From NCBI GenBank assembly GCA_964350985.1, contig CAYGLK010000002.1, forward strand, positions 64,382 to 128,381: a stretch of DNA of 64,000 nt. The letters are read 5' to 3'. Below the pieces are notes generated by a model that did no database searches, was not told where the DNA came from, and saw nothing but the letters and a program-made list of their open reading frames with translations. Below, in pieces: positions 16,483 through 61,885 of the stretch (positions within the stretch are counted from its first letter, which is position 1; each line of letters starts with the position of its first letter). Source of the DNA: an uncultured Candidatus Saccharibacteria bacterium (lineage in GTDB: Bacteria; Patescibacteriota; Minisyncoccia; Phycocordibacterales; UBA918). The position numbers and the translations under genes are program-made.

Positions 16483-16634
16483 AATATATTGGAGGATTGG
16501 CTATGAAATCTAATTTGTTTTAGATTTCATCCGATCGTTCCCCAGAACGAATAATCGATGCTTTAGCGAGATTATAGGGAGGGTAACGAAGCCAATCCTA
16601 TCTAAGATCAGAGTGAATATATTGGAGGATTGGC
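16483..16634. repeat. 23-nt direct duplication (gtgaatatattggaggattggct) of the tRNA 5' end plus leader, with an inverted 10-nt copy (agccaatcct) in between
   Basis: Copies at 16483-16505 and 16612-16634; the inverted fragment sits around 16580. Confidence 0.55.
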
Positions 16635-16710
16635 TGAGTGGTTGAAAGCAGCAGTTTACTAAACTGCCGAACCTTAACAGGTTCCGAGAGTTCGAATCTC
16701 TCATCCTCCG
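16624..16710 (+). tRNA. Type II tRNA (Ser-class architecture) with apparent anticodon ACU (loop TTACTAA); unusual A34; no encoded CCA
   Basis: Acceptor GGAGGAT/ATCCTCC, D-loop AGTGGTTGAA, anticodon stem GCAGT/ACTGC, variable arm GAACCT-TAAC-AGGTTC, T-arm GAGAG-TTCGAAT-CTCTC. Confidence 0.65.
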
Positions 16711-16717
16711 CGAGTAC

Positions 16718-34300: not shown

Positions 34301-35386
34301 ATCTAGAGCCTGTAGCGGTACCATTGGCCTATTAAAGGTAAAGGTCAAAATAGTTTCCTCGCTGACATTTCCAACATTTAGATTTGGTTCAAACAAATCA
34401 ATCTTGGGACGCTGCACAGCCCGGAAGCGCTTTTCACTAATTGAACCGTCAGAATTTTCGTAAGATAAAGTATAAAAATTATTCTCTTCTAGCGGTTCAC
34501 TTAATTTAAAAACAATATAATCAGGTGATGTTGTCCTTCCCCACCAAGTACTAATACTTGGATCAAAATCAACATTAAATCGAGACAAGAATTTGCCTTC
34601 ACCTTCAGGTAAACGAACAACAATTGGACCATCAAGAGGAACTGTATCGCGGATTAATTGATAATCGTTACGTAACTCGTCAGGAGTTAGTGTGACTGGC
34701 CGAGTGATAATCCAAGTAAAGTAAGCTAGTGCGCCAAGTAGTAGTATGAATAACGCTATATAATGATTTTGTCTAAACTTTTTACTTAGACTGAAATTCC
34801 TCCACCACCATCTGATAGGTAGCAGGAGAAAATGCAGTACAATCTTTCCCTTCGCAAACAGAACATTAAGAAAGACTAAGTTTATCTTTGGAACTGAGAC
34901 CTCTTCGGTAGATCCTTTTGTTAGTTCATTAAACTGGATATTACGACTATATAAACCGTGTACTATTAAATAATAGATTCCTATACTCAAGAAAAATGGT
35001 AATAAGTAGAGTACGTACGAGAAGATAAGGGTTAAGGAAAAGCCTTTCGCTATACTTTTAGAAACAACATCATAGATAAACAATAAACTTCCAGCCAAGG
35101 CCAGAAGACAAACAAGCGCCTGAGCGATATAGAGACCTAGTCGAATACGACGATATTTACCTATTTTTACTGATCCTTTAATGACAAACAATTGATATAA
35201 CGGAGTCAATGAATATTTACTAGACAGAATAATAATAGCAATCCAATAGATGGCTGGTATAAGGGAGCTACCAGTGTAGCTAAAAACTCTTTCAATGGTT
35301 AATGAACTATTAACCAAGGTCATCAACACCAAAGCTGAACCGACAAGTACTGCCGGATGAGACCAAGTAAAGAGGAGGCGAAACAT
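28298..35386 (-). CDS. Giant (2362 aa) membrane-anchored alpha-2-macroglobulin-family protein (bacterial A2M/YfhM-like)
   Basis: N-terminal TM segments; thioester-type motif YPYGCSEQ; size and beta-rich repeat organisation consistent with the A2M family. Confidence 0.7.
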   Translation of the reverse strand: MFRLLFTWSHPAVLVGSALVLMTLVNSSLTIERVFSYTGSSLIPAIYWIAIIILSSKYSLTPLYQLFVIKGSVKIGKYRRIRLGLYIAQALVCLLALAGSLLFIYDVVSKSIAKGFSLTLIFSYVLYLLPFFLSIGIYYLIVHGLYSRNIQFNELTKGSTEEVSVPKINLVFLNVLFAKGKIVLHFLLLPIRWWWRNFSLSKKFRQNHYIALFILLLGALAYFTWIITRPVTLTPDELRNDYQLIRDTVPLDGPIVVRLPEGEGKFLSRFNVDFDPSISTWWGRTTSPDYIVFKLSEPLEENNFYTLSYENSDGSISEKRFRAVQRPKIDLFEPNLNVGNVSEETILTFTFNRPMVPLQALDRDYEIDVPITITPPTEGSFVWASERQLEFIPAKRLTRSSDYTVTVGEGFYSVDGLQVPKEEYNFTVNRLRTTEYSRGNLRAQDPLRFSFNQPVSIEDMEIAVVNKDNNSIPVTLEYDSSLTYNPDLKQKENVIDRSTVIVRPVENEARWFFGESISYTVTNIRPTEGTLTSPDIRATSTVANLLMRSDVYSQRSREVRSDYFDPQGVIRLYFSQPVDKDKLTISGVGRSVATVKYQSLCEAYDPVCNRYNDSVVEVSFVGEQLELAKDYTLTISDFFDLDGVRIADVKEEVKFKTVGPLVITEVIPTAGSEDRSLTVCSSNPIIEYRSLNYKDLFQTEQPIYSFSRSEISSFVTPYETLLPLQSQPLCAGSFKTTVQFSLLPETDYVIKLTPEDVFGNQLSTETSFRTPERVKPVVTEIKKVAWMKNLHQRYEVTTPDRTAFTYSFGNIDYIDLTICKLSPEEMLRIGGELGRGQEAPSNCLERQDRRIDLSNPSGTSYVQLDLQQYFNNVKGHYVITVTHPELKYSDYQFKKNTERQYFDHMYTSVTNLSLVEKRTNQFDLNSEEVTDRKTGIVRDGAGSGLYWVSNLSTLDPVEGAQISVYRDTAPGNKVLIERAATVVTNEDGVGLVKTVADAVGAYVISGDDSAMVSSWADTISSSGAVHEIEQMYLYTDRPIYRPGHEVFIKGLHRIGYDAKYEIFADRIVTVTVSGPGGQIFSTSTSLSEYGTVAAELVLPENAPLGSYSIHAQTWSGYNVGYSYFSVEEYTPSPFEVKATSQRDEYVAGETLDVIVSADYFFGAPVAEGTVSYAITTQNYYFDKGNDRRFRYGSFDEYCSQCGYYDQFVARGEVPLENGVANILTELDFNKLFEDEENSNTSKIFVINATVKDASGRSVSTQASFIVHRAMLYGAVRTLDHFSAVGESNIIEIRTVDTEGVGRPGKVNMEIVREDWKQFERREVDGSFYVHSEEIEVPVFDAEVTTNQNGLLELPFTFDKAGRYILRLSGVDERGNPYLASASQYVYGKGAVPVRRNNDRTLDIAVDEVDLAVGQTSKLIIKSPYQKAKALVTVERGSVMEYEVIDVDANFFDYDFVAKKDHSPNVVVTVTLISSEPSVKYGEVYYQIDHDVYNLDINVISNKKAYLPGEEVTLQVETKNNDGLPVPAEVSIAAVDLSVLALKGNPKRDPLAFFYNRFSHDVITSSNLKFVHEEIEIPTGTKGGDGGVDLAKRERGVFKDTAFWAADVVTDSNGRATVKFTLPDNLTRWQVETIGITKDTKVGVNYMEFEEKKDLIMTPLYPRFLVPGDKLSLGAEVLNRTKVSQTITFTIESDSLVLVGKPQTVTIPAEGSKRLFFDVEAPRSILGGSHEVLFVAGNSLFEDSVRKQIPVVENTLYETVFRGAQTSGELIEEKIFTPTEIHQELGGVTVKAFGTVGAYLEDSLNYMAAYPYGCSEQLASKLATLATISHLTSLEGLGSEYRLETVEFNNNTYSVNEALQQGLKQIYESQARDGGFGYYRGLRSDVSLSLHVLSVLLSLEKYGIEIDEDVLNQAKKFAGTVASRRFNEDSIVDSSWKMDYLTTRLVTLKEIDPRPRAVDVGVSELRKSITRKAIRNFSTHSLVYAALLSDELWFWDRYTVWNEIERRLRENNDGIYISRSSVSFAKSFYETDMANTAILLRAITTQERETDLAPKIVDWLLSERQFDGAWGTTNTTHVVVQTLTDYIEWKGESGARTVITALLDGEIIATHNTELQPKLEGLSKLLTFDELGLGEEHLFTFTQVEADARQNNTIYYDIEMKYYLDREVLPGRDEGVQVTREFFALDDIDKQNPLTEATVGDTVLGRITFSIGSPMRMMAIEDKIPAGFEIINFDYSTENKIVLDAAIKSAAKVQAENKFDVAAFMSTGEFAALETVDVYKDEKEALKPNRRQYTRAFRGGTEELHDDRIFVFQESLDPGTYVYEYYLRTLVPGQYQHLPVWVGELYNPEFFGRTASGEFTVVK

Positions 35387-36876: not shown

Positions 36877-36949
36877 CCGCCTGTAGCTCAGTTGGTAGAG
36901 CGCAGAGCTTATACCTCTGTGGTCCTTGGTTCGAGTCCAAGCGGGCGGA
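36877..36949 (+). tRNA. tRNA with anticodon UAU (loop CTTATAC), putatively tRNA-Ile(UAU); no encoded CCA
   Basis: Acceptor CCGCCTG/CGGGCGG (one G-U), TAGCTCAGTTGGTAGAGC D-arm, anticodon stem CAGAG/CTCTG, T-arm CTTGG-TTCGAGT-CCAAG, discriminator A. Confidence 0.7.
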
Positions 36950-36955
36950 CTGGCG

Positions 36956-45071: not shown

Positions 45072-45464
45072 GGGGATGCTAGGCATCGACGGTTAGCCTA
45101 CCCATTATGTGCAGTGTCGAAATTGGAATCAATTCGTTAAAAGGTTCCATCTGTATTTGCAAACAAGCCAATACCAAGTCCTTACGCTAACGCGTTTGGA
45201 TTCGCTCCCGCTCTAGCGTAACCATTCGCCTAGACCCGGATCGATGCGATCGTACTAAACGCCTCATACAGTACGATTCGTAGAATAGCCACGAGGCTGT
45301 GGACTTAAGTGTCGTTGTCGCTTAAGTTCAAGATTGTCACAACTCGAGTAATTGTTGTTTTGTCTCTTCTATAGACAGTTACTTTAAATCAAAGGAGAAA
45401 CTACACACTGTAGATTCATGATGAGTACCTGATTCGGACGGGGTTTCGATTACCCCCATCTCCA
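45072..45464 (+). ncRNA. ssrA: tmRNA (ssrA), one-piece; tag ORF 45159-45221 encodes ANKPIPSPYANAFGFAPALA
   Basis: 5' end GGGGATGCTAGGCATCGACGG (tmRNA-like start); 3' tRNA-like domain GGGGT-TTCGATT-ACCCC plus acceptor CATCTCC pairing with GGGGATG. GCA resume codon in ...tttGCAAAC..., tag ends ALA-TAA. Adjacent to smpB. Confidence 0.7.
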
Positions 45465-45469
45465 CTCGC

Positions 45470-46301: not shown

Positions 46302-48167
46302 ATGAAATTCGAATCGTCTTCTTTTGAAGCAGAACCTTCTTTTGTTGTAACACCTCCACCAATTGACGCCTTACTAAAAATAAGTAGAGAAGGTTCATAC
46401 CTACCACATGAGGTTATGGAGAACGACGAAAGAATCAAACAGGCTGAACTTAGACTAAAAATTCTCGATCTCCTGCAGTCAGTACTCATCACTAATGACG
46501 AGACTAAAACAGACACGTTACCTGATGAACTATACGCTTCACTTACAGAACTACTTCATTCGGACAACCAAAATAATCGGATAATTCTTTACCTCCCGTT
46601 TGAGTGGGTTCCTAAAATTAACCAATCAGACAACGTCTCTGAAAATATCAACCAACAAGCAGAAGCCTTTTTGTCAGCTTATAAAACTGCATGGCTTTCC
46701 CTACTCACCTCATCTGAATTTAGAGCTGATTATGCCGATGGTGATATTCTTGAACCAGCATTTAGAAACGAAAAATTACCTAAGGTGGTAAAAGCGGCAC
46801 ACCTTATACCAGACCTTCTTGAAAGAGGTGTTTTGACTATGGATGAAATTATCACTCTATTTGAAGAGGCTGAGAATACCACCTTGCAAAACAGCATTGC
46901 AGACGGACTTTACGTCGCTCGCGAAAGAAATCTCGTCACAGACGAGCAGCTTGCCAAAATGAAGTTTTCTCAAAACACTTTTGTTTCCAATACCGCCAGA
47001 CTCATTGAGATTGAAATAAAACAACTTACTGAAACAAATAATGAAACAACAGAGCTAGTTCAAATTATTTCAGCGTACGAAGGTGAAATCACAGAAACAC
47101 AAAAAATAGCAGAAAATACGCCGATGACAGAATCACGTCGGGCGTGGCTACAAGCAGCTGACGCCGAAAAAATTATAGAAAAATACGCCTCAAAAATCAC
47201 CAACCGGACTGATCTTGATGCCCTGCTTGTTAGTAAGGAATTAACTCATATCACCCTTGGAATTCGTTCAATCGAATATCTATTGCGCCAAGAAAGCGAC
47301 AGCAAGACACAAGAATCTTTGACTGTAGAGTATCAATCCGTACTTCAAAATTATCTTGACCATGACGTCGAATCAGTCCGCGAGGCAGCCAAAAAGACCC
47401 TCTACCATTTACGCTCACTAGGACTTATCAATGATGCTTCACTAAACTCACAGGGACTTGAGCTGCCACAACTAAATGCCTCATCAGAAACCATTCTAAA
47501 TAAATTGAGTTCGGAAATTCAGCAATTTACCGAAGCTTCAAATCGTATAAAAAATAACGAGATACTTTCTAAGCATGTATACCCAGTTACAGTCTTTCTT
47601 GGTTCACGAATGAAAGGATATGCGTCAGAAGCAGCAGACTTTGATGTCGCCGTGTTTGTGAAGCCAGGTGCCTCTGAAAGCGATCGTCAGATAATCCAAA
47701 AAGAACTTACCACAGTATTTGCTGGCACACCGGCAAAAGGGAGCGCTATGGAATTTTGGCTTGAAGAAAAAAGTGACGGTAACTATACAGTTAAAAACTA
47801 TGAGGTGCTCGATGAGAAGCGTGGAGACAACACCCTAGTTCATCCAATTCTCGGCGCCTGGTGTGGTGAAGAAAAAGCAATTGCTGAACTTCAATCAAGA
47901 CTCATGCCACAATACCTTTTCTCCAAAGACACCGCTATTATGAATGTCGACGCCCGGTCAATTTGGCTAAACGAAATTGAACATACAACATTGAAATACA
48001 GACTAATGCATAAGGGTTATTCACGATTTTCGGCATCACAACTAGGAACACCCACACCTCACAATGATCTCATAGATAGTTCAAGTGCCTTCTATGATCC
48101 TGGCTACCGCCGACTAGCAACCGAACTATTTCTCAAGAAAGTTTTTCTGCCTCAACTATCTAAGTAG
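46302..48167 (+). CDS. Large protein with C-terminal minimal nucleotidyltransferase (pol-beta-like) domain; unknown alpha-helical N-terminal region
   Basis: 621 aa; NTase signature GSRMKGYASEAADFDVAVFV (hG[GS]..D.D) around residues 435-455. Confidence 0.55.
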   Translation: MKFESSSFEAEPSFVVTPPPIDALLKISREGSYLPHEVMENDERIKQAELRLKILDLLQSVLITNDETKTDTLPDELYASLTELLHSDNQNNRIILYLPFEWVPKINQSDNVSENINQQAEAFLSAYKTAWLSLLTSSEFRADYADGDILEPAFRNEKLPKVVKAAHLIPDLLERGVLTMDEIITLFEEAENTTLQNSIADGLYVARERNLVTDEQLAKMKFSQNTFVSNTARLIEIEIKQLTETNNETTELVQIISAYEGEITETQKIAENTPMTESRRAWLQAADAEKIIEKYASKITNRTDLDALLVSKELTHITLGIRSIEYLLRQESDSKTQESLTVEYQSVLQNYLDHDVESVREAAKKTLYHLRSLGLINDASLNSQGLELPQLNASSETILNKLSSEIQQFTEASNRIKNNEILSKHVYPVTVFLGSRMKGYASEAADFDVAVFVKPGASESDRQIIQKELTTVFAGTPAKGSAMEFWLEEKSDGNYTVKNYEVLDEKRGDNTLVHPILGAWCGEEKAIAELQSRLMPQYLFSKDTAIMNVDARSIWLNEIEHTTLKYRLMHKGYSRFSASQLGTPTPHNDLIDSSSAFYDPGYRRLATELFLKKVFLPQLSK

Positions 48168-48171
48168 CATA

Positions 48172-48207
48172 TAAAAAAACAAGCGGCCCCGGGGGACCGC
48201 TTGTTGA
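48172..48207. terminator. Bidirectional terminator (aaaaaaa-caagcggcccc-ggg-ggaccgcttg-tt) between convergent genes
   Basis: GC-rich hairpin with an A-run on the left, which is a T-run for the minus-strand operon. Confidence 0.55.
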
Positions 48208-48226: not shown

Positions 48227-49432
48227 TTACAGCTGACCTTTGTCGCGGGAACCGATACCGCCGCCCCGTCCAGACACACCCGCGGTATCGAGTCGATCCC
48301 ACGGAATCATCGCACCGAGCTGATAGAGAGCCACGATGTACTGCAACTCAGCCTGCCCGGCGGTGACGTTCTGGAACTCGATGATGCCGAGCGCAAATTG
48401 CTTCAGGTTCCGCTCGAGTCGCGGATAGTCAGAAGACACCGCCACTCCCAGCGTGCGCAACATCTGCTCGCGATTGGCCGCGCCCACCTGAGCGGGGAGC
48501 GACGGGTTCTCGAGCACCTTGCGGATCTGCTGGGCGTCATACGCCAGCGCCATAGCGACCGGCATTCCGGTACCAGCGAACACGTAGTTGATGTCATTCA
48601 CAACACCATCAGCCGCATCACGCAGTACCTCAGCGGGAGGCGGTTGCATCATCCCCGGAGGAACGATCCCGCCAGCCCCGCCAGCCAAAGCACTCAGCAT
48701 GCCGACCATGGCGGCCGGATTGCTCATCCCCTGTTGCCAGGCGTCGACCCACTGCTTCAGCTGCTGCTGATACGAGTTCAGCGAGCCCCAGAGACGATTG
48801 TTGATTCGGCCCAAGAGCGCGGCCTTGCGCGCCTGGGTGGCGAAGCGACCGTCGACGCCGGGCATGGCCGCAAAAATCTCGGCGTAGCTCCGGCGGGTCA
48901 GAAGGGCCTGCAACTGGTAGTAGTCGTCACCGACAGGTTCTTGGAGCGATTCCGCCTGACGCTCCATCGCCAGACCGATCTTTTCGGGAAGGTCGAAGAG
49001 GCCAAGACGAGCCGCCAGAGCAGCGCTCACGGTACCGGTGACAGTCTCCTTGTTGAACCTGAGAACGCCACCAACCTTGAGAGCATTGAGCCAGGCTTCG
49101 TCCGAAGGGACGGCCGGCAAGACATCGAAGGTCGCCGCACTCATCGCCGGTACCGCGGTTTCGCTAGCGGCAGGTGCCGGAGCGATTTCACGGAGGCCAG
49201 CAATGGCCTTGGCCAACTTCGCCTTGGGAGCGCCGTCGCCCACCGCCGCACCGATATCGGTGTCGGGAGTGAACTCGCGATCCTTGAGGAGACTGATTGC
49301 TTCATCGCCCGGTTCACCGACCAAGCCCTTCAGCGCAGCGGTGATTTCCTCGACGCTCTTTCCGAGCGCAGTGGCAAACGGGGTGATGTAAGCGACCCAA
49401 CCTTCAGGAAGGGTGATGGTTGTATCATTCAT
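48227..49432 (-). CDS. GC-rich hypothetical protein (401 aa), last gene of the GC-rich operon; no recognisable motif
   Basis: Long ORF with high-GC codon bias; Ala/Gly/Gln-rich low-complexity stretches. Confidence 0.55.
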   Translation of the reverse strand: MNDTTITLPEGWVAYITPFATALGKSVEEITAALKGLVGEPGDEAISLLKDREFTPDTDIGAAVGDGAPKAKLAKAIAGLREIAPAPAASETAVPAMSAATFDVLPAVPSDEAWLNALKVGGVLRFNKETVTGTVSAALAARLGLFDLPEKIGLAMERQAESLQEPVGDDYYQLQALLTRRSYAEIFAAMPGVDGRFATQARKAALLGRINNRLWGSLNSYQQQLKQWVDAWQQGMSNPAAMVGMLSALAGGAGGIVPPGMMQPPPAEVLRDAADGVVNDINYVFAGTGMPVAMALAYDAQQIRKVLENPSLPAQVGAANREQMLRTLGVAVSSDYPRLERNLKQFALGIIEFQNVTAGQAELQYIVALYQLGAMIPWDRLDTAGVSGRGGGIGSRDKGQL

Positions 49433-49476
49433 GACTTCTCTCCACGTAGATGCGGGTTTTGCCCGCGGGTTGTATT

Positions 49477-50865
49477 TCAGAAAATTGCTTTGTCGAGTTC
49501 GGTGGGACCGAACGCGAGCATGCGTAGTGGAATGCCGAGGTTTTCGGCGACCAGCTCCTTGGCTAGTGCAATGGCACCATCCTTAGAGCCACCGGGAATC
49601 ATGTGGCGAGTAATGACCGGCTTTGCGCTCATGAGCGCTTTACCAAGTCCTTCCTGATACCACAGTTGTTTGTCGTCTTCTCCTCTTCTAACGATTATTT
49701 CACCTTCCTTGGTGAAATAGTTTTGATCGAGCTCACCTTCGTAACGCTGGCAAACATCCCAAGCGCCGAAACGCAAAGGGGTGTCAAACCAAGTCATTGC
49801 CACGGCGTCAAAAGTGCCGCTGCCTCCACTCACCTCCTTGGCGTAGCGGAGCGCAACAAAGTCTAGCGGGCCAACACGCACCTTACCACGATAGCGATCG
49901 GGCTTGCCGACCTCTTCGGGAAGTAGCGTTTCGGCCATCTTCGCATCGTCAACCACAAGCGGCCCGGCCCCGTGTCTGATTTGATACGAGCGTGTCACAC
50001 CGATTTTTGCGACGTCACCATCCCATCCGTTCTCGCGGAGCAGACTCCAAGAGGTTATCTCAGGGAGTGTCCGGAGGCGGGTGGTATGAGGATGAAAGCC
50101 GTTAAAGCGATCGGTGAGAATACCGTGTGAACTTTCAACCACAATCACTCCGTCGCGAGATAGAACCTCACGACGCAAATAGTCATGATCGACAATGCGC
50201 ACACTCCTCCCAAATTCTTCAAACACATCGCCGACCCAATCAAGGAATCCGTCAGTGCGAATGAGATCAATCTGCTTCTGCACCTCTTCAACGTCGCCTG
50301 CCAGATAGCCTGCTTCCAAGACAAGTGCCAGGTCGCAGAGCTTTTGTGCATGTGCTGCACGAAGCTTTTCTCTGATACCTGGTTGCTTGAGATCCCTTGC
50401 TCTAATCGCCAGTTCCGGAAAGAGTTCGGCGTCGAGGAATGCTTCCCCAACACCAACACCTACCGTCCCTTTTGGGTTTTCCTTGCGAGCAAGTTCCTTC
50501 AGTCGTGACGCTATGCCATGAAAAGGCGTCGTCACGAGGGCATTCTCATCGACAGCGATAATAGACAACGGGTCGTAAATTCCATGTTCGTAGCGGAGCT
50601 CCTTAGCCTCGTTGAGGAAGCCAAGGGGCGAAACCACAAACCGGTCAGTCACGAACGTGCGGGCACCATTGAAGGTGCCACACCCGAACTGACTGAAGGC
50701 AAACTGTTCACCACGGGAGGTTGTTACGCCGTGATGTCCTTGTGCTCCCCCAACCTTGATGACGGTATGGGGTTTTCGGAGTGAGCACAACTTGTGCACC
50801 ACACCCCCTTTCCCCCCGTCACCACCACCAAGGTCGGTGACAGTATAGGCTTTCTTTTCGACCAT
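49477..50865 (-). CDS. Divergent adenylosuccinate synthetase (PurA/PurZ family) homologue
   Basis: 462 aa; GGGDGGKGG aligns with the GDEGKGK P-loop, GGAQGHHG with GGHNAGH, VVSP with VLSP, GTVGVGVGEAF with GTTGRGIGPAY, VESSHGILTD with FEGAQGTLLD, RHGAGP with RVGAGP. Several substrate-contact positions are substituted. Confidence 0.6.
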   Translation of the reverse strand: MVEKKAYTVTDLGGGDGGKGGVVHKLCSLRKPHTVIKVGGAQGHHGVTTSRGEQFAFSQFGCGTFNGARTFVTDRFVVSPLGFLNEAKELRYEHGIYDPLSIIAVDENALVTTPFHGIASRLKELARKENPKGTVGVGVGEAFLDAELFPELAIRARDLKQPGIREKLRAAHAQKLCDLALVLEAGYLAGDVEEVQKQIDLIRTDGFLDWVGDVFEEFGRSVRIVDHDYLRREVLSRDGVIVVESSHGILTDRFNGFHPHTTRLRTLPEITSWSLLRENGWDGDVAKIGVTRSYQIRHGAGPLVVDDAKMAETLLPEEVGKPDRYRGKVRVGPLDFVALRYAKEVSGGSGTFDAVAMTWFDTPLRFGAWDVCQRYEGELDQNYFTKEGEIIVRRGEDDKQLWYQEGLGKALMSAKPVITRHMIPGGSKDGAIALAKELVAENLGIPLRMLAFGPTELDKAIF

Positions 50866-50931
50866 AAAACCTCCCAGTCATTGTGACCGCAAGTGTGCAG
50901 GACTCTCGTCCTGCACACCTTTACGGCAAGT

Positions 50932-52050
50932 TCAGAGCCACGTTCCGCCAGCGGCGGCTTCGGGCTCACTTCCTTCTTCAGCGACCGGCCACAGGTCGTG
51001 CTTGTTGGCAAACACCGCTCCCTTCCCGGGAATCTTGTCGAAATTGGGGAAGAGCGTCTGTGCGCCAAGCGGGATGTGCGCCACTGCGCGCTGAATTTCA
51101 CGCGCCACAGTTGCACTACACCCAGTTTCCGTGAGGAAACCCACGACCGACTGCAGGTCGAGTACACCTTCCGTCAGACCGATGATGGCCGCTTCGACGT
51201 AAGCGATGTGCTTGGTGGTATCAATCACCACCACGTGTTCATCCCCGTAGTACCGCCGCCAGTAGTTGACACTGTCACGGCCCACCATGATGGCAAACGC
51301 ATGAGCCCGCTTCTTGAGCACGCTCATGATCTCATCAGTTCCAGACGGAAAATCCCGCTGGTCCATCGGAAAGCCATTGTCCGAGCACCGCTCGAACACC
51401 GTCTCGCCGAACACCCGGATGAGATGCCGCTTGTCGACACGTCCATGACTCGTGGCGTCCGTCGTCATGAAGTGGTACGGCAGCAGACCGTAGCGGTTGA
51501 TGAAGGGGTCGGTGAGGAACGCTGCCCCGAAGAGACCGTATTCCGGATCTTCTGGCTCGTCGCCACCCTTGCCTTCAGCAATCATGAGCACGAGTTGCTC
51601 AGCGATACGGACATCCATCTCCGCCTGCGTTCGGGCGAGGACGAACTTGTCCTCCACGTCACCGAACATGGCATTCATGATCTGCACATCGTACCGTCCG
51701 AGGAGCGGGTTTGCACCCGCCGTCAGGAGGTCGTACTGCTTCGGCAGCGAGTCGAAGATCAGGCGAATGTTGCTGGCCATGGAACCCGTCGTATCGAACA
51801 AGTTCTCGACGAGCATCGGTACCCCGACGCCGAGCCGGAACTTGCCGTTCACGAGTTCATCATAGCGAGGCCACGACTTCCGTACCAGGTCATACCCAGC
51901 CGGATCGACGAGGGCATGAAGTGCCCCCGTCGCTTCGTAGTGTTGCCGACCTGCGTGTGAGGCATCGCCACCTGCGGCAGCGACCTTGGCGGATTCTCCG
52001 GCGTAGGCCGAACGATCAAAGTGACGAAAGCTCTTGTCTGCACGACTCAT
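50932..52050 (-). CDS. vWA-like (MIDAS-type) domain protein, tentative
   Basis: 372 aa; beta-strand MLVENLF followed by DTTGSM (compare DxSGSM); overlaps the upstream gene by 4 bp (ATGA). Confidence 0.4.
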   Translation of the reverse strand: MSRADKSFRHFDRSAYAGESAKVAAAGGDASHAGRQHYEATGALHALVDPAGYDLVRKSWPRYDELVNGKFRLGVGVPMLVENLFDTTGSMASNIRLIFDSLPKQYDLLTAGANPLLGRYDVQIMNAMFGDVEDKFVLARTQAEMDVRIAEQLVLMIAEGKGGDEPEDPEYGLFGAAFLTDPFINRYGLLPYHFMTTDATSHGRVDKRHLIRVFGETVFERCSDNGFPMDQRDFPSGTDEIMSVLKKRAHAFAIMVGRDSVNYWRRYYGDEHVVVIDTTKHIAYVEAAIIGLTEGVLDLQSVVGFLTETGCSATVAREIQRAVAHIPLGAQTLFPNFDKIPGKGAVFANKHDLWPVAEEGSEPEAAAGGTWL

Positions 52051-52889
52051 GGTCTATCTCCTGTGGAAAGTGCGAGTGTTGTAAACGGATGAAAATTCCG
52101 TCCCCAGAGTGACTCTACCGTGTGGTAGAAAGCGGAATGAGCCTCACGAGCATCGCAAAATGCTCCGCGCGTAAGACTCATCAGAACTGCCTCATAGGCA
52201 GAATCATAGTCGGGGTCATCTTTCGGAAGCGTCATTGTTGCCAAGTCGCCTCCAAGTAACCACCAAACATTTCGTGCAGCCAGAGCGACTTCTTCGCGCC
52301 GGCTTTTGGCATCGAACCCTCTTTTCGCTTGCGACCAATCAAGCAGAGTCACCAGATGGTGCTCTTTCTCAATCAGGGTCGTTTCGTGATCAGCGAGGCT
52401 GCCAAAACCGACATCGCAGCTATGGACGAAGTCAAGGAACTTGAGGGTCTTCCCCAAGATCCAAACACTGGTCTTCATATCGACCCTGGACCGATCACGT
52501 TCACGAATGAAAGAGATAGGAACAAGGTCGATCAAACGGTCAACTGCTTGGAACCCAAGAACAACGACCCGGCGGCTTCCTTGATCTGGTACAACAAACG
52601 TTTCGACCACCTGCGGAAAGCAGATGGTGTAATTCAGCCTGTTGTGTCCCGGGAATTTCCGCTGATACTCAGCTTCGAGCCCCGCCGCGGCCTCGGTCAA
52701 CTCGCCGAGAAGAAAAGCTTCGCGGTCGAGAATCCCATTTTGGGCGGTCGAGACACCAATCTTCAGCATCAATTCGGAGTCGGGAGATTCTGGATTTTGC
52801 ACCCGAAAGTAGCGAAATCTGTCATTCTCTCCGACCAGGTTTTGTACCTGGTACGTACCTTTACGGCCACAAACATGTATGGAGGACAT
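52047..52889 (-). CDS. Hypothetical protein with weak protein-kinase/APH-like fold signals, first gene of the GC-rich operon
   Basis: 280 aa; HSCDVGFGSL...LLDWSQA resembles the catalytic-loop and DFG/IDW regions of APH/CotS-type kinases. Low confidence. Confidence 0.35.
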   Translation of the reverse strand: MSSIHVCGRKGTYQVQNLVGENDRFRYFRVQNPESPDSELMLKIGVSTAQNGILDREAFLLGELTEAAAGLEAEYQRKFPGHNRLNYTICFPQVVETFVVPDQGSRRVVVLGFQAVDRLIDLVPISFIRERDRSRVDMKTSVWILGKTLKFLDFVHSCDVGFGSLADHETTLIEKEHHLVTLLDWSQAKRGFDAKSRREEVALAARNVWWLLGGDLATMTLPKDDPDYDSAYEAVLMSLTRGAFCDAREAHSAFYHTVESLWGRNFHPFTTLALSTGDRP

Positions 52890-53393
52890 TGTGTTACCTC
52901 TCTTTCTTCAGTTGGTTTCTGTTGATCAGCTGTATGTCAAATAGCTTTTCCAACCCTTGCAGGCTAGCCACAATTTGGAATACGCAATTCAAACACTAAT
53001 TTGATTATCTGTCAATAATTTATGGGTTAGATTCAATGTTGGATTACAACACTGGTTAACCCATTAAATACTGACAAATACCCTTCCAGCCCATCAACAG
53101 CCACCGTAGTAATTCGATTCCGAACTTCTTTAGTTGGTTTTTAATATCCAGAGAGTTGCTGTTATATTTATATTCTTTTGTCAAAGAACCGGACACGTAC
53201 CTAAGATGGAACTACTTCATCCGCTAACGGTTTCAAACCTTCTTAGGTACTTTGTGTGTATCTGACACTAAGATACACCTGTTATGTGTTAGTGTCAACG
53301 CTACACTAAATACGATACAATTATTAATTAGCGTCAAACCTACACACCTGACAGACAGCAAAAGAGCGGCCTTACGGCCGCTCTTCCCTCCTC

Positions 53394-54107
53394 TTAGATA
53401 ACGAGCGAAAGCTCAGTAAGTTTTTCTGACTGAAAACGATAGAGTGCTGCCGGGCGATTCTTTACTCCCTGTTGTACCTCGCCAGTTTCTACCACCATCC
53501 CTAGAGCAACGATCTTTTTTCGAAAGTTACGCTTATCAATCTCCTTGCCTAAGATTAGTTCGTAGACAGTCTGAAGTTCAGTTAGTGTAAATTCTTTCGA
53601 GAGTAAGAATTGAGCAATGTTCGTATAGGAAACCTTGCCTTTCAGACGATTGAGTGCGGCGGTAAACATCTTGGTGTGGTCATACGCCAGCTTTGGCAAC
53701 TCTCGGACCGGACACCAGCGCAGTCCTTTGTCTAACTGAAGCGCGTGGGCATCCGGCCTAACCAAGCCTAAATAGCTGACAGAAATAACGCGATTACGTT
53801 TATCGCGTTCAATTTCACTAAAAGTATAGAGCTGCTCAGTATAGGTTTTCTTAAGACTTGTCTTACTAGCGATATGACGCTCGAGAGCCATCTCCGCAGT
53901 TTCCTTGGCTTCAATCAAACCGCCGATAAAGGCTTCAACCTTCGTGTAGTGTGGCGGACGATTAACTTCACCAAGGAGCACCGAAAGCTTTCCATCCAGC
54001 ACCGCGAACATCACCACATCAACCGCCATGGCGGCAAACCTCATTTTATCTGGCGCCTTTTGTGACATATTAGTGTTAAATATACACTCACTGAGACTGC
54101 AGTTCAA
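53394..54107 (-). CDS. Nudix-hydrolase-like domain fused to a C-terminal winged-helix (NrtR-like regulator); the ATG start at 54068 is plausible
   Basis: 237 aa; degenerate Nudix box GGLIEAKETAEMALERHIASKT; C-terminal helix-turn-helix-like region; intermediate GC. Confidence 0.5.
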   Translation of the reverse strand: MNCSLSECIFNTNMSQKAPDKMRFAAMAVDVVMFAVLDGKLSVLLGEVNRPPHYTKVEAFIGGLIEAKETAEMALERHIASKTSLKKTYTEQLYTFSEIERDKRNRVISVSYLGLVRPDAHALQLDKGLRWCPVRELPKLAYDHTKMFTAALNRLKGKVSYTNIAQFLLSKEFTLTELQTVYELILGKEIDKRNFRKKIVALGMVVETGEVQQGVKNRPAALYRFQSEKLTELSLVI

Positions 54108-54402
54108 GTACCTTTATTTCATTATTTAAGTGGAAAAATTACACATTTAATTTTCAATTTTATGGCCCTGCCCCCTTTTCCTCAAAACACTTAGAGCAAT
54201 TGACCAGAAGAATATTTCTGATACATTTAAATTATGTTTAAACAACATACAACTAATAGTTGGTGGCCTACACGAAATTCTCATCGTGCGGGCTTTGTGT
54301 TGTAAAATTTTATACTCATTCTTTTGTATACAAAACCCGCTCTGTGAGCGGGTTTTGTTATGTAGCAAAACAGTTCTTTCACACCAACCCAAGGAGAGTC
54401 TC

Positions 54403-55182
54403 ATGATTACCAAACGTAACCGCACTGCCATCATGCAGTATGCGCAAAGCCACCAGGCCGAAGGCCGAGTAGAACAAGCTTTCCAGACATTGGAAAACAT
54501 TCTGCCACTGCTTGGTCCCCAGTCGCACAGTCGGGCTATGATTAATCGTCTCGGCACTGTCCTACTGCAGGAAAAGATTCGGATTATTGCCCCCTCTTGC
54601 CCTGACTACTCACATAGTCACGGCCAGTACAATTTCTGTACTGTCGGAGGTGCGATTCCGCTCTTGTCGCAGCTGCATATAAAGTTTCTCGAGACTATCG
54701 CGCCGGCAATCCCGCACATGGAGTGTGAGATTGTCGTCGCTGATCAAGAAGCTGATGATGCGGTCTTGTGCCGGAAAACTGGTCAGACCAGAGATGAATT
54801 TCTGGGAATGATTCACCAGTCTATCAAAGCAACCCGAGAACACCTCTTGGGTAAAGGCTGGATCGTCACGGCAATGACCGAACGGTTCCCCGAGCTGCGG
54901 TCTCTGGAACTGACGATGGCAGGAGAAATCACCAATAACAGTGACCTGCAAAGTCGCATTACCCATGACGCCCAGGCACGTTCTGTGATGTATCAAAAAC
55001 TTGGAGTTTCTGACTTCAGTGAGATGCGTCAAAGAACAATCCGGACAGCGTCACAGTACTGCGCCCTAGCGCACATTGCCGCTCGCGATCGATTGCTGGT
55101 CTGCAATCATGAGACGGTGAACCTTGGCTGGTACAACCAGTACGGAGCAGCGGTCCTGCACAATCCCGTATCGGTCTATTGA
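54403..55182 (+). CDS. Hypothetical protein (259 aa from the RBS-supported ATG), moderately GC-rich
   Basis: AAGGAGAG 6 nt upstream of the ATG at 54403; no recognised motif. Confidence 0.5.
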   Translation: MITKRNRTAIMQYAQSHQAEGRVEQAFQTLENILPLLGPQSHSRAMINRLGTVLLQEKIRIIAPSCPDYSHSHGQYNFCTVGGAIPLLSQLHIKFLETIAPAIPHMECEIVVADQEADDAVLCRKTGQTRDEFLGMIHQSIKATREHLLGKGWIVTAMTERFPELRSLELTMAGEITNNSDLQSRITHDAQARSVMYQKLGVSDFSEMRQRTIRTASQYCALAHIAARDRLLVCNHETVNLGWYNQYGAAVLHNPVSVY

Positions 55183-58918: not shown

Positions 58919-61885
58919 TTAAATTTTATAAACTGAATCTATCTCCTTCATGATGCGATCTGTTTCGATAAGGGCAACGATAATTTTTTGGTAGTGTTCA
59001 ACATCTTCATGTGTTAGCTTTCGATCTTTGCGGTCTTTAAGCCACTTTTGGGCAGGTTGGTACCCACCAATATAGAAATTCCAAGCAACTTCTGGTACGT
59101 CACCAAAACACTGCTCGCTATTGATGTAAACGTTGCTATTTTTGTAGGAAATTTTCTCCACTAAATTCTCTCCTGATACAGAGTAACTTGTCACAAAATT
59201 ATAAAGTTTTGTTGATTCCATCAGATGAATCTTTTGAAGCTCTACTCCTAGTTGTGACAATGATTGGTATGACTTAGCGTTACTAGGGAACGGTATACTA
59301 GGAAAGTTTATTTTCAAAAACTCACCGTAATTATCACGGTATGTATGAGAGTATAGAGTCGCGTATATATATCCGAAAAGCTTCTCTGCATCTGTATCAC
59401 CAACAACACTTTCAATCTTTCTGTAGATTTCTGGCTCAAAGTTGTTCATTCCTTCACCATGGTCATCGTAAACATACAAAGGGAAATGATAGGATCCAGT
59501 ACTACTCTCGGCGGTCTTCATCTCTGATAAAGTATCTGAAACAAAGTAGTGATTAGTAAAACCAGATTTTGACTGTCTACCAGAAAGTAGATTAATGTTA
59601 TTTTTGAGAGAATGTTTCATCTGTTCTTTTCTGTGTCGTTCAACAAGTTTTGTATCATAGTAAATAAATCGAACGTCAAAAGGTCTGTAAAGTATTCTCT
59701 CGACTAATTCCTCATCATAGTCAATAGGATCGACTCCATGCGCTAGAACCTGTAGTCGTAACTCTTCCTTCGAAAAACCTATAACAACAGCGTCTCTGTG
59801 TGTTTTAATCCCAGCTGCTTTTACGAGGAACAGGTCTTCAATAGAGAAGTTTTGGTTGTATTCTTCCTCAAGTTCAAAATTTTTGGGAACAAAAAAGAAG
59901 TATGGATCTTTACTATCTAATTTTTTCCACTCAGTGTTTTCGATGTTTGAATTTGTAAGTTTAGAATATTTACTTTTTTGTGTTCCATACAAGTCGGCAT
60001 GCCAAACGTTTGCTAAGTTTTTGCTTCCACCGCTTTTTTTAACTAGGATTGAGATTGCGACTCCTTGCTGAATCTCAAAAACATTTTCATCTTTACTTCC
60101 GTCTGGTGATTTCTCTTTTTTATTTGAATCTCCATGTAAATTGTATATATAAATGTCATCAAAAGTTTCTAGCAAATGTTTACGCATCTGACGGTGAACA
60201 ATGCCATCAACAAAAGAATTATTGGTGATCATGGCAATGATTCCAGACTCATTCTTTTCAATAAAATGCTCAGCCAGTCTCAGGAATTTTACATAGTCGT
60301 CAGACAAAGCGTTGTAACTTTTCTCTTCGAGACCATTTTTGTAGACCTTAACTAAATCTTGAATCCACTTACCTTTATTACTTGAGCTGGGACTATACGG
60401 TGGATTTCCAATAATAACCATAATTGGGGTATCATTCTTTATTTTGCTGGCCTCTTTAGATTCTTCGGCAATACTTTCAGCAAAACCGAATCCAGAGAAC
60501 ACAGAATCTTGTGGAGCTGTTTCTTCCAAGGAATTTGTTAGAAATATGTTTAGTCGCCGATGAAAATTCCAGAAACCTGTCTTTTTAAATGCCATACTCA
60601 ACTTTAAATGAGCGATAGTATACGGCCCCATCATCAACTCAAATGCGTGGATGCGTGGCAGTAAATCGTGGTGCACATAGGCTGGCCATGAACCTTCTTG
60701 CTTTGATTTCAAAATACGTTCGTATATTGTTCGAATTACTGCACTAATGAAAGTCCCTGTTCCGGTGGCAGGGTCAAGCACTTGTACTTTATGTATACCG
60801 TTTTCATGCTTACTTGTATCTGCTAGGCCACGAGCGAGACCAAAATCCTTCTCGAGTATTTTATCAACTGATTTCACAATAAATCGAACTACTGGAGTCG
60901 GTGTGTAGTAAGCACCCATTTTCTTTCGTAACTCAGGATCATACTCTTTGAGAAAGTCCTCATAGAAGTGAATGACCGGATCAGGTCCTTCTGTCTCATC
61001 ACCCCAAAGAGTCTTGCCGAAATATTGTGTCATCAAGTCTTTTACGTCTGCATGGCGAAAGACCTCACATAATTCATCGACAATATAACCTAGTTTTGGC
61101 TCAAAATTTACCCCTGCAATATGGTCGAAGAAGTGTGCAAGAAAAGGATTAGACGCTGGTACCAAATCGCGTGCTTCTGAACGACTGAAAGTTTCCGGTG
61201 TTTCGTCACTGTATCGAGCAACAAAAAGTCCGTATACCAGGGTCTGAGCATACATATCTGCAAAAGACTCTTTGGACATATCGTGCACAAGCAGATTTCG
61301 CATTGTTTCAAACACTTTTTGGACGTCTGTCACCTTATCTCGGTTGAGTATGCTGAGTACGTTGTCACTTAGTCTTCGCGCCTTGCCACCCATAATCTCC
61401 GCGAGATGTTTACCATCTTTAATTGGTTCAGCTTCACCATGCAAAAAGTCAGAAAGAGCATTCAAAAGTCTTTCAAATTGTTCAGTGTTTGAAACTAAAT
61501 GACCATTTTGTATATGAGCGATTCTGATTGGATCTTCGTACACGACTCCGTTTCTAAAAAAGCGAAATTCTAGATAATCAGTAAGAATTAGGTTTGAATA
61601 TCCTAAATATCTTTGCATCTGGTCGGATTTTTCCACCTTATCCAAATCAACACCAATATCTTTTGTTTCTGTGTAGCCTACGGTTACATCACCTCTGAGG
61701 AATACAAAGTCAGGATTTCCATGAGCACTTCTTGAAGGGTCATTAAGTATCTTAAGTGACGCATCAAGCTCGTGGATGAGTCTTTCGAAAACTGGTCTGT
61801 ATGCATGCTCACGTGCTTGGCCAGTCTGAAATTTGTCGTTTACTGATGCAAAGTATTCCTCAAGTAGTTTTGACGAGTATGCCAT
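58919..61885 (-). CDS. Type IIG/IIL single-chain restriction-modification enzyme (N-terminal PD-(D/E)xK nuclease, gamma-class N6-adenine methyltransferase, C-terminal target-recognition domain); MmeI-like
   Basis: 988 aa; MTase motif I VLDPATGTGTF and motif IV NPPY (VIIGNPPYSPS); GAYYTP; N-terminal D..E.K region DFVFLRGDVTVGYTETKDIG. Confidence 0.75.
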   Translation of the reverse strand: MAYSSKLLEEYFASVNDKFQTGQAREHAYRPVFERLIHELDASLKILNDPSRSAHGNPDFVFLRGDVTVGYTETKDIGVDLDKVEKSDQMQRYLGYSNLILTDYLEFRFFRNGVVYEDPIRIAHIQNGHLVSNTEQFERLLNALSDFLHGEAEPIKDGKHLAEIMGGKARRLSDNVLSILNRDKVTDVQKVFETMRNLLVHDMSKESFADMYAQTLVYGLFVARYSDETPETFSRSEARDLVPASNPFLAHFFDHIAGVNFEPKLGYIVDELCEVFRHADVKDLMTQYFGKTLWGDETEGPDPVIHFYEDFLKEYDPELRKKMGAYYTPTPVVRFIVKSVDKILEKDFGLARGLADTSKHENGIHKVQVLDPATGTGTFISAVIRTIYERILKSKQEGSWPAYVHHDLLPRIHAFELMMGPYTIAHLKLSMAFKKTGFWNFHRRLNIFLTNSLEETAPQDSVFSGFGFAESIAEESKEASKIKNDTPIMVIIGNPPYSPSSSNKGKWIQDLVKVYKNGLEEKSYNALSDDYVKFLRLAEHFIEKNESGIIAMITNNSFVDGIVHRQMRKHLLETFDDIYIYNLHGDSNKKEKSPDGSKDENVFEIQQGVAISILVKKSGGSKNLANVWHADLYGTQKSKYSKLTNSNIENTEWKKLDSKDPYFFFVPKNFELEEEYNQNFSIEDLFLVKAAGIKTHRDAVVIGFSKEELRLQVLAHGVDPIDYDEELVERILYRPFDVRFIYYDTKLVERHRKEQMKHSLKNNINLLSGRQSKSGFTNHYFVSDTLSEMKTAESSTGSYHFPLYVYDDHGEGMNNFEPEIYRKIESVVGDTDAEKLFGYIYATLYSHTYRDNYGEFLKINFPSIPFPSNAKSYQSLSQLGVELQKIHLMESTKLYNFVTSYSVSGENLVEKISYKNSNVYINSEQCFGDVPEVAWNFYIGGYQPAQKWLKDRKDRKLTHEDVEHYQKIIVALIETDRIMKEIDSVYKI

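Follow-up and report, generated by a model that had tools for sequence, protein, structure and literature searches.

A conserved Patescibacteria operon encoding a predicted pseudokinase, a vWA protein and a PurA-fold enzyme

A 64,000-nucleotide stretch of contig CAYGLK010000002.1 (hereafter the window), from an uncultured Candidatus Saccharibacteria bacterium, carries four genes which form a single operon closed by a terminator (Table 1). Their products, designated by a family letter and their length in amino acids, are K280, a protein with a protein-kinase fold; V372, a protein with a von Willebrand factor A (vWA) domain; P462, which has the fold of adenylosuccinate synthetase (PurA); and U401, the product of the fourth gene. 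A further family, N, is represented by the convergent neighbour N621. Sequence comparison indicates that the operon is a conserved Patescibacteria module, largely co-inherited vertically, and not a foreign island. As a system, the module is without a described counterpart, though K, V and P each have a known fold. In many genomes it is probably a member of the regulon of NrtR, the Nudix-related transcriptional regulator linked to NAD and ADP-ribose.

The anatomy of the operon is nearly certain. The reading frames of K280 and V372 overlap by 4 bp (ATGA), and the packing of four co-directional minus-strand genes described in an earlier note on this DNA proved exact in its coordinates. The note had also placed a bidirectional terminator behind the operon. 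The hairpin is present, but its T-tract lies on the minus strand only and the terminator is not clearly bidirectional.

The proteins of the operon

P462 belongs to the PurA superfamily, as the search against Pfam proposed in the earlier note confirmed: it matches PF00709 (Adenylsucc_synt) with an E-value of 1.2e-29 over residues 15-378. Its best match among the PDB sequences is the PurA of Thermus thermophilus (2e-13). The score against the NCBIfam purA models (TIGR00184 / NF002223) is 65 bits, far below their cut-offs of 395-402. The phage family phrog_1211, annotated as PurZ-like, matches P462 better (4.8e-40), and the NCBIfam PurZ model (NF038379) gives 15.5 bits against a cut-off of 300.

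The residues of the active site were compared with those of two PurA proteins, one from T. thermophilus and one encoded in the annotated Escherichia coli K-12 genome. The P-loop residues D16 and K19 and the histidine H45 of P462 correspond to Asp13, Lys16 and His41 of PurA and are invariant in 31 sequences. The guanine-specifying aspartate (E. coli D333) is also retained as the invariant D361, within a motif changed from TKLD to TWFD, and the C-terminal G453-P454 is conserved. The substrate contacts are altered. In Patescibacteria, phage and four other lineages, the residues T300, T301, R303 and R305 of the aspartate pocket are replaced by Y/W, Q/R, a gap and V/F, respectively. The contacts to the 5′-phosphate of IMP are likewise exchanged in Patescibacteria, phage and other lineages (T129 to V/I, R143 to E/P, N38 to Q). 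P462 itself has Q42 in place of N38, valine in place of both T129 and R131, glutamate in place of R143, and RYRG-KVR in place of TTGRxRR. New invariant residues line the site (Q224 to H247, V273 to H298, K331 to W359), and all PurA-like partners share TRHG and [WY]xG-xxR instead of TRVG and TTGRxRR.

These comparisons show a PurA-fold protein, predicted to be a GTP-type enzyme, with rebuilt substrate pockets: those for L-aspartate and for the IMP 5′-phosphate are lost. The proposal of a neofunctionalised PurA homologue is thus borne out, with the catalytic Asp, Lys and His and the guanine-specifying Asp left invariant. The accompanying statement that the IMP- and GTP-contact motifs are substituted holds for the IMP-phosphate contacts but not for all GTP contacts, as D361 and the C-terminal Gly-Pro are kept. 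Compared with canonical PurA (EC 6.3.4.4), P462 shares the fold, the P-loop GDxGKG with its catalytic Asp and Lys, the catalytic His, the guanine-specifying Asp and the C-terminal Gly-Pro. It differs in its replaced aspartate and IMP-phosphate contacts, in the invariant histidines at the Q224 and V273 positions, and in its setting, which is outside any purine-pathway context and always beside a pseudokinase and a vWA protein.

A second point of comparison is PurZ of phages. There, the catalytic Asp is replaced by Ser in 100% of sequences and aspartate is still condensed (PMC12884076). Both PurZ/PurZ0 and the P family are phage-associated, neofunctionalised branches of the PurA superfamily, and the best PHROG match of P462 is PurZ-like. 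In contrast to PurZ, P462 has an invariant catalytic Asp16 and no aspartate pocket, scores far under the NCBIfam PurZ cut-off, and was seen with none of the partners DatZ, MazZ, DpoZ or DutZ. Comparison with PurA and PurZ sets the protein apart from both: it does not retain all canonical PurA substrate residues, and it keeps the catalytic Asp that PurZ has lost.

V372 has, by a fold test, the Rossmann-like vWA fold, and the vWA domains of NorD and BchD are among its structural neighbours. Its metal-ion-dependent adhesion site (MIDAS) is complete, with D86-x-T88-x-S90, T180 and D198 all invariant and Thr replacing the first Ser of the DxSxS motif. These features show a vWA protein with a complete MIDAS that is predicted to bind metal, in agreement with the vWA-like protein that the earlier note had recognised by its DTTGSM motif. 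The tail of V372 is disordered and ends in an invariant W(371)-L. The V372 profile found no match among PDB sequences, and the Pfam VWA and Pkinase models do not detect the V and K proteins of Patescibacteria.

The kinase fold of K280 emerges at the level of the family. A profile of 55 sequences matches CK2alpha (E-value 5.6e-7) in two collinear stretches which cover the N-lobe and the catalytic-loop/DWG region; other eukaryotic-type protein kinases are matched too. The beta3 lysine and the alphaC glutamate are each present in 27 of the 55 members and the DFG-type aspartate in 43. The aspartate of the HRD position is not conserved in the family, and K280 itself also lacks the catalytic-loop asparagine. 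The invariant residues of the family are W143, G146, K150, H178 and Y255. By the usual criteria, K280 is predicted to be a pseudokinase with a protein-kinase fold. The 280-residue protein had been described as resembling aminoglycoside phosphotransferases (APH) or kinases; the kinase fold stands, but the resemblance is to eukaryotic-type protein kinases and not to APH.

U401 comprises an N-terminal SAM-like/HhH domain, a disordered linker and an all-helical C-terminal domain. The N-terminal domain is detected as PF22931 in 18 of the 42 members of the U family. No structural neighbour of the helical domain was found in PDB or BFVD, and the U401 profile had no match among PDB sequences. Comparison between lineages suggests that the fourth gene is a modular, exchangeable partner which differs from one to the next. 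At one locus (L013:9420-10433) and six others the fourth gene encodes about 337 residues, with an N-terminal region which by eye resembles the SAM/HhH region of U401 and an unrelated C-terminal part; two further loci (L095 and L101) have other unrelated fourth genes of 353 and 352 residues.

N621 has a large helical N-terminal region and, behind it, a minimal nucleotidyltransferase core of the Pol-beta type. Its profile matches the nucleotidyltransferase cores of HI0073/MNT and GLD-2; the hits to Pfam Polbeta (0.0023) and NCBIfam MntA (7e-4) are both below cut-off. Membership in the RlaP family, to which gp3 of the phage discussed below belongs, was rejected (hhalign probability 0.3%).

Conservation, base composition and origin

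The operon was compared across 83 loci from Saccharibacteria, Paceibacteria, Uhrbacteria, Falkowbacteria, Daviesbacteria, Moranbacteria, Peribacteria, Wildermuthbacteria, Ryanbacteria and Nomurabacteria. P is present in all 83, V in 82, K in 75, N in 74 and U in 67. The gene order K-V-P-U is maintained, with N convergent and downstream; the search for the four-gene synteny suggested in the earlier note thus found it throughout Patescibacteria. P, V and U have hundreds of homologues, with identities of 45-90%; most are unnamed, and all of the named ones come from Patescibacteria. Pairwise distances of K, P and N correlate with r between 0.77 and 0.84 (K-P 0.84, P-N 0.77), which fits co-inheritance. 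The distances of V and U correlate less with those of the other genes (r = 0.40-0.78).

The operon stands out from its surroundings in base composition, as had been noticed from the sequence. GC content per kb is 0.51-0.59 between 48 and 53 kb and about 0.40 elsewhere in the window, and the individual operon genes range from 0.52 to 0.62. The rise is mostly synonymous: GC at third codon positions (GC3) is 0.53-0.71 in the operon genes against 0.33 +/- 0.06 in 30 other genes of the window. The antisense strand contains open reading frames of 419 and 355 codons. These had been judged spurious, and shuffling of synonymous codons in the sense genes yields equal open stretches; they are therefore by-products of composition and were rejected as overlapping genes, both in the window and at other loci.

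The same enrichment recurs elsewhere. Relative to flanking genes, GC3 is raised by 0.21 in U (100% of loci), by 0.17 in V (97%), by 0.09 in K and by 0.06 in P, and the excess recurs with an equal ranking of genes in most lineages. N621 lacks it. The idea that GC3 excess is a trait of the whole NrtR regulon was rejected, since it is absent from NrtR, PncA and ADP-ribosylglycohydrolase, as it is from N. A single transfer from a GC-rich host cannot account for such a recurrent gene-specific pattern, and we infer that the high GC content is inherent to these genes, recurs with them and is not a mark of foreign origin.

The earlier note had suggested that the operon could have been acquired horizontally from a GC-rich donor, plausibly the actinobacterial host if the organism is an epibiont. 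The abrupt jump in GC and GC3 and a tmRNA gene 3 kb away would suit a recent transfer of this kind, and the only phages with a full-length P family member infect Actinobacteria. However, the named top homologues of P, V and U all belong to Patescibacteria, synteny is held across the phylum, the GC3 excess repeats with the same ranking and ends at N621, the phage P protein branches outside the entire Patescibacteria clade, and no integrase, repeats or att-like features flank the GC-rich block; a host-derived island is thus very improbable. The tmRNA gene itself (45072-45467, plus strand) lies 0.8 kb upstream of N621. It is not an island boundary here, because the interval from it to the block shows neither an integrase nor att-like repeats.

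Predicted NrtR control and triads outside Patescibacteria

Directly upstream of K280 lies a gene for a protein with both parts of NrtR (PF21906 NrtR_WHD, 8e-26; PF00293 NUDIX, 1e-7), called as 211 residues in the public contig. NrtR is freed from DNA by ADP-ribose, and the sites that it binds are palindromes of 21 bp with GT-N7-AC as their core (PMC2330246). Two predicted operators (53251-53309) lie past the nrtR hairpin terminator, read from the sequence at about 53362-53385, and overlap a sigma70-like promoter of the operon (-35 TTGACA at 53298-53293). A third predicted operator points to autoregulation of nrtR. Across the 64 kb only these three sites have at most one mismatch, all at the nrtR or K promoter; the remaining ones have three mismatches, which is the level of chance.

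The arrangement extends to other genomes. With up to two mismatches allowed, 20 of 72 loci have the motif at a distance of 120-240 bp upstream of K, whereas 0.1 were expected from shuffled sequences. In the same loci it also precedes pncA (7), ADP-ribosylglycohydrolase (7), nadE (4) and nrtR (3) genes and a NUDIX-NAMPT operon, as well as nadD-like and prs-like genes which were recognised by eye, with only the nadD-like gene of locus L095 checked against Pfam. At L095, which stands for a divergent lineage and gives independent evidence, a single strand carries nrtR-nadD-pncB-nadE, a gene of 324 codons, then K-V-P and the fourth gene of 353 codons, with a one-mismatch box before the second half. 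The resemblance to the NrtR regulons described by Rodionov et al. (2008) lies in the adjacent Nudix-wHTH regulator, the 21-bp palindromic GT-N7-AC operators over the promoter and the sites at NAD genes. None of the described regulons contains a pseudokinase-vWA-PurA-like operon, and the membership proposed here is a prediction from sequence.

Three observations concern the surroundings of the promoters with predicted operators. At one Patescibacteria locus (L004:2547-4885), nrtR and the operon are adjoined by a NAMPT gene and a NUDIX gene of 300 codons, both with raised GC and with predicted NrtR boxes of their own. In the window, an open reading frame at 54286-55182 (plus strand; 298 residues, 259 in the public call; GC3 0.545) is divergent from nrtR and shares the operator at 54070-54090. 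It has no Pfam or NCBIfam match and may be a further member of the regulon. Lastly, the leader between promoter and K280 start (52890-53265, minus strand, 376 nt) folds at -111 kcal/mol against -79 for shuffled sequences (z=-6.0) and holds a 24-nt inverted repeat (53006-53029 / 53057-53080). A riboswitch was rejected for this leader: no Rfam family matches, and the strong fold is not conserved upstream of K at other loci.

Relatives of the triad K-V-P are found beyond Patescibacteria. A full-length P relative with 33% identity is encoded in 202 records of cluster C (Bixzunavirus) mycobacteriophages. In phage Rizal the order is gp250, annotated as a kinase, gp251, a 90-residue reading frame and the PurA-like gp253. 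gp250 matches K280 at 6e-10 and the K family at up to 2e-15, gp251 matches the V family at up to 8e-13 over 359 residues, and gp253 matches P at up to 3e-54. In a rough neighbour-joining tree the phage P protein is sister to the whole Patescibacteria clade. The public annotations of the phage triad genes go no further than 'PurA-like' and 'kinase'. A viral origin of the Patescibacteria operon was rejected, as the 2.9 million contigs of IMG/VR yielded just 3.

The V family is small, with 497 clusters among 1.84 billion representatives in an exhaustive profile search, and patchy outside Patescibacteria. Around its distant members the triad recurs in bacterial contigs (L095/L096, L101), in phage-like contigs (L098/L099), which carry a K of the DnaJ-Pkinase type, and at L100. 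On one 3.9-kb contig, K and V are joined in a single 679-residue protein (P0415, L097:1323-3362), with K at residues 18-294 (hhalign 2e-22) and V at residues 340-664 (2e-55). This fusion was seen once; apparent K-V fusions at L009, L022 and L055 were rejected owing to an in-frame stop. The suggestion that the PurA homologue works as a unit with vWA and kinase-like partners is thereby upheld: the triad is collinear in 75-83 of the 83 Patescibacteria loci, in Bixzunavirus and in at least four further lineages, and is fused in part once.

Phage-type and some bacterial K proteins have an N-terminal J-domain with an HPD motif (L007:3550-4680, L098:6915-7985, L100:6924-7898), which hints at recruitment of Hsp70; the K280 type of Patescibacteria is without it. 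The phage triad has RNA-end enzymes as neighbours, and the phage encodes Pnk, the RlaP protein gp3, an RNA ligase, a Ro-like protein and many tRNAs. No homologue of NAD salvage was found in the triad-bearing phage by annotation or tblastn. At L100:601-3954, a classic vWA-PP2C-Pkinase (TerY-type) set is directly upstream of a divergent K-V-P triad.

Table 1. Operon genes, neighbouring genes and predicted regulatory sites, in window coordinates
Feature	Position	Strand	Remarks
N621	46302-48167	+	convergent neighbour, 621 aa
Intrinsic terminator of the K-V-P-U operon	48178-48205	-	12-bp G+C-rich stem, then TTTTT
U401	48227-49432	-	401 aa, fourth gene
P462	49477-50865	-	462 aa
V372	50932-52050	-	372 aa
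K280	52047-52889	-	280 aa, first operon gene
Predicted NrtR operator	53251-53271		one mismatch to TTAGTGT-N7-ACACTAA
Predicted NrtR operator TTAGTGTCAACGCTACACTAA	53289-53309		palindrome, 0 mismatches to TTAGTGT-N7-ACACTAA
nrtR, Nudix-related transcriptional regulator	53394-54107	-	directly upstream of K280, co-directional; real start probably 54029
Third predicted NrtR operator	54070-54090		one mismatch; upstream of nrtR and of the divergent reading frame 54286-55182

The rest of the window is that of a cellular genome of about 40% GC, with the tmRNA gene, tRNAs and genes for FtsH, RecG, a class A penicillin-binding protein and a PilB-like ATPase. It also encodes a bacterial alpha-2-macroglobulin-like giant protein of 2362 residues (28298-35386, minus strand; MG2, A2M, bait region, TED and MG10), large for so small a genome. 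Two tRNA genes on the plus strand deserve mention. The one at 36877-36950 is a tRNA-Ile with anticodon UAU, which suggests AUA decoding without lysidine; the one at 16624-16711 was called as a second tRNA-Ser, whose anticodon, ACT, is unusual. According to the public gene call for the contig, 58919-61885 (minus strand) encodes a fused restriction-modification enzyme of the MmeI/type ISP-like kind (N6_Mtase, MmeI_Mtase, Type_ISP_C).

Possible mechanism, alternatives and significance

We tentatively favour, at a little under an even chance, a composite reading in which the operon specifies an ADP-ribose-induced, NAD-linked nucleotide-transforming complex, with V and K assembling or gating P. In this scheme P would still bind GTP and phosphorylate an oxo (or hydroxyl) group of a substrate other than IMP, and a nitrogen nucleophile other than aspartate would then displace the phosphate. 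Our confidence in this specific chemistry is low. V (by means of its MIDAS and the conserved W-L tail at its C-terminus) and K could mount P on a partner that differs between lineages, for example U, or gate it there. The role of V would be comparable to that of the vWA adaptors which couple NTPases to their targets in the MoxR, BchD and CbbO systems. Pseudokinases can show unexpected catalysis, as SelO and SidJ do; K might act as a nucleotide-binding scaffold or as an atypical catalyst of this kind. In Patescibacteria, ADP-ribose would accumulate on NAD breakdown, NrtR would leave the DNA and the operon would be de-repressed. Release of NrtR by ADP-ribose, together with operators shared with NAD genes, implies that the operon would switch on during NAD breakdown. 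Its product may then serve the recovery of NAD or adenine nucleotides, or the handling of ADP-ribose.

Several points weigh against this composite. We infer the substrate, the nucleophile and the formation of a complex from sequence comparison. A recognisable box is present in only 28-36% of loci, and the box-less lineages might use a different motif or none. NrtR regulons at times include non-NAD genes (PMC2330246). The triad-bearing phage, with its J-domain K and its RNA-end neighbours, is without a NAD-salvage homologue; the NAD link may therefore be a regulatory convenience in cells, specific to the cellular versions. A simple metabolic enzyme is not obviously in need of a pseudokinase and a vWA partner. 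Finally, K might be more than a scaffold, given the activities of SelO- and SidJ-type pseudokinases.

A conflict system is the first alternative to be weighed, and we regard it as unlikely. Here, the operon would be a bacterial immune or stress module fired by the cleavage of NAD to ADP-ribose, and a counter-measure in phages; the roles of sensor and adaptor would fall to the vWA/kinase-fold pair, in the manner of TerY-type triads, and that of a nucleotide-directed effector to the PurA-like enzyme. The homologous triads in lytic mycobacteriophages and a phage-like contig speak for it, as does the L100 triad directly behind a TerY-type set. ADP-ribose, the effector of NrtR, is the product of NADase defence systems; the variation of the fourth gene and the small, patchy V family outside Patescibacteria would also fit. 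Against this, a search of PADLOC-DB 2.0 gave no match at E<=1 for K280, V372, P462 or U401. The fixed gene order, the largely vertical co-inheritance and the housekeeping and NAD surroundings in Patescibacteria differ from variable defence islands, the triad is nearly absent from the viral contigs, and the kinase is catalytically degenerate. TerY-type triads share with the operon a cytoplasmic MIDAS-bearing vWA protein encoded beside a protein-kinase-fold protein. They differ in that K280 is without catalytic residues and the third partner is a PurA-fold enzyme; no PP2C phosphatase was found in the window or at the 83 loci, and one was seen only in the separate neighbouring set at L100.

A role in the repair or modification of RNA ends or tRNAs is less likely than a conflict system. 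P would activate a base or terminal group on RNA, while the nucleic acid itself would be handled by the HhH/SAM protein and the nucleotidyltransferase, which is N621 in Patescibacteria and RlaP or a CCA-type enzyme in phages. Pol-beta-type nucleotidyltransferases are neighbours in three lineages (N621 in 74 of the 83 loci, RlaP gp3 in Rizal, and a PolyA_pol/HD protein directly upstream of K at L098), the phage carries its set of RNA genes, U has a HhH/SAM-like N-terminal domain, and the lost 5′-phosphate pocket would suit a polymer-embedded or non-nucleotide substrate. However, the three nucleotidyltransferases are not homologous beyond the superfamily, no RNA ligase, Pnk or RtcB adjoins the Patescibacteria operon, and the NrtR/NAD linkage is left over unless an NAD-dependent RNA chemistry is invoked.

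A more specific form of the NAD-linked composite, in our estimate no likelier than the RNA module, holds that the triad rebuilds NAD or adenine nucleotides from NAD breakdown products by PurA-type chemistry, is induced in Patescibacteria by ADP-ribose through NrtR and has been borrowed by mycobacteriophages. Example reactions would be the joining of ADP-ribose and nicotinamide or the amidation of a deamido intermediate. The known routes NARP1/2/3 are likewise tied to ADP-ribose and NAD turnover and occur in cells and phages, but their proteins (Adps/Namat; Nampt/NMNAT; PnuC/NadR-like) are wholly different, and none is encoded in the operon.

An ordinary, divergent adenylosuccinate synthetase for purine salvage (IMP to AMP) beside functionally unrelated neighbours is improbable. 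The PF00709 match is significant, public annotations name P homologues adenylosuccinate synthetase, and P retains an intact GTP site along with the catalytic Asp and His; NAD synthesis needs AMP, and co-regulation with prs and NAD genes would fit. Yet every lineage has other residues at all four positions that bind aspartate and at three that contact the IMP phosphate, the score stays far under the curated purA cut-off of 402, and no purB or other purine gene was seen around the 83 loci. Strict co-inheritance with K and V, the K-V fusion and the phage triads would be unexpected for a stand-alone enzyme.

With respect to known systems, the nearest parallel for the coupling of V and P is found in MoxR-vWA, BchI-BchD, CbbQ-CbbO and NorQ-NorD, in which a MIDAS vWA protein is genetically coupled to a P-loop NTPase. 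In contrast to those pairs, the NTPase here is a SIMIBI-class PurA-fold protein and not an AAA+ protein, and a pseudokinase is an obligatory third member. Searches of full-text literature yielded no prior description of the K-V-P combination in Patescibacteria or phages, nothing that ties PurA-like proteins to NAD, vWA or Patescibacteria, and no connection to NARP1/2/3. The defence database was equally silent. The candidate status as an undescribed system, claimed at the outset from the sequence, is maintained.

Patescibacteria make up a large share of bacterial diversity and have tiny genomes in which most conserved 'hypothetical' genes are unexplained. The operon described here is a phylum-wide unit of four to five genes with a clear predicted regulatory input, ADP-ribose through NrtR. 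Its strict partnership of a dead kinase and a MIDAS adaptor with a PurA-fold enzyme has no described counterpart. The synonymous enrichment in GC, which returns in the same genes across many AT-rich genomes, is by itself an evolutionary signal.

After PurZ, P would be the second case in which the scaffold of adenylosuccinate synthetase has been put to a new use, with TRHG, [WY]xG-xxR and the lost aspartate pocket as its well-defined signature. The triad in Bxz1-type mycobacteriophages offers a genetically tractable way into its function. A role in NAD or adenylate recovery, if confirmed, would bear on the cofactor pools of episymbionts with minimal metabolism and on the NAD arms race between phages and bacteria. 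Should the triad indeed rebuild NAD, it would constitute a fourth, mechanistically new route of NAD recovery, common to ultra-small bacteria and viruses.

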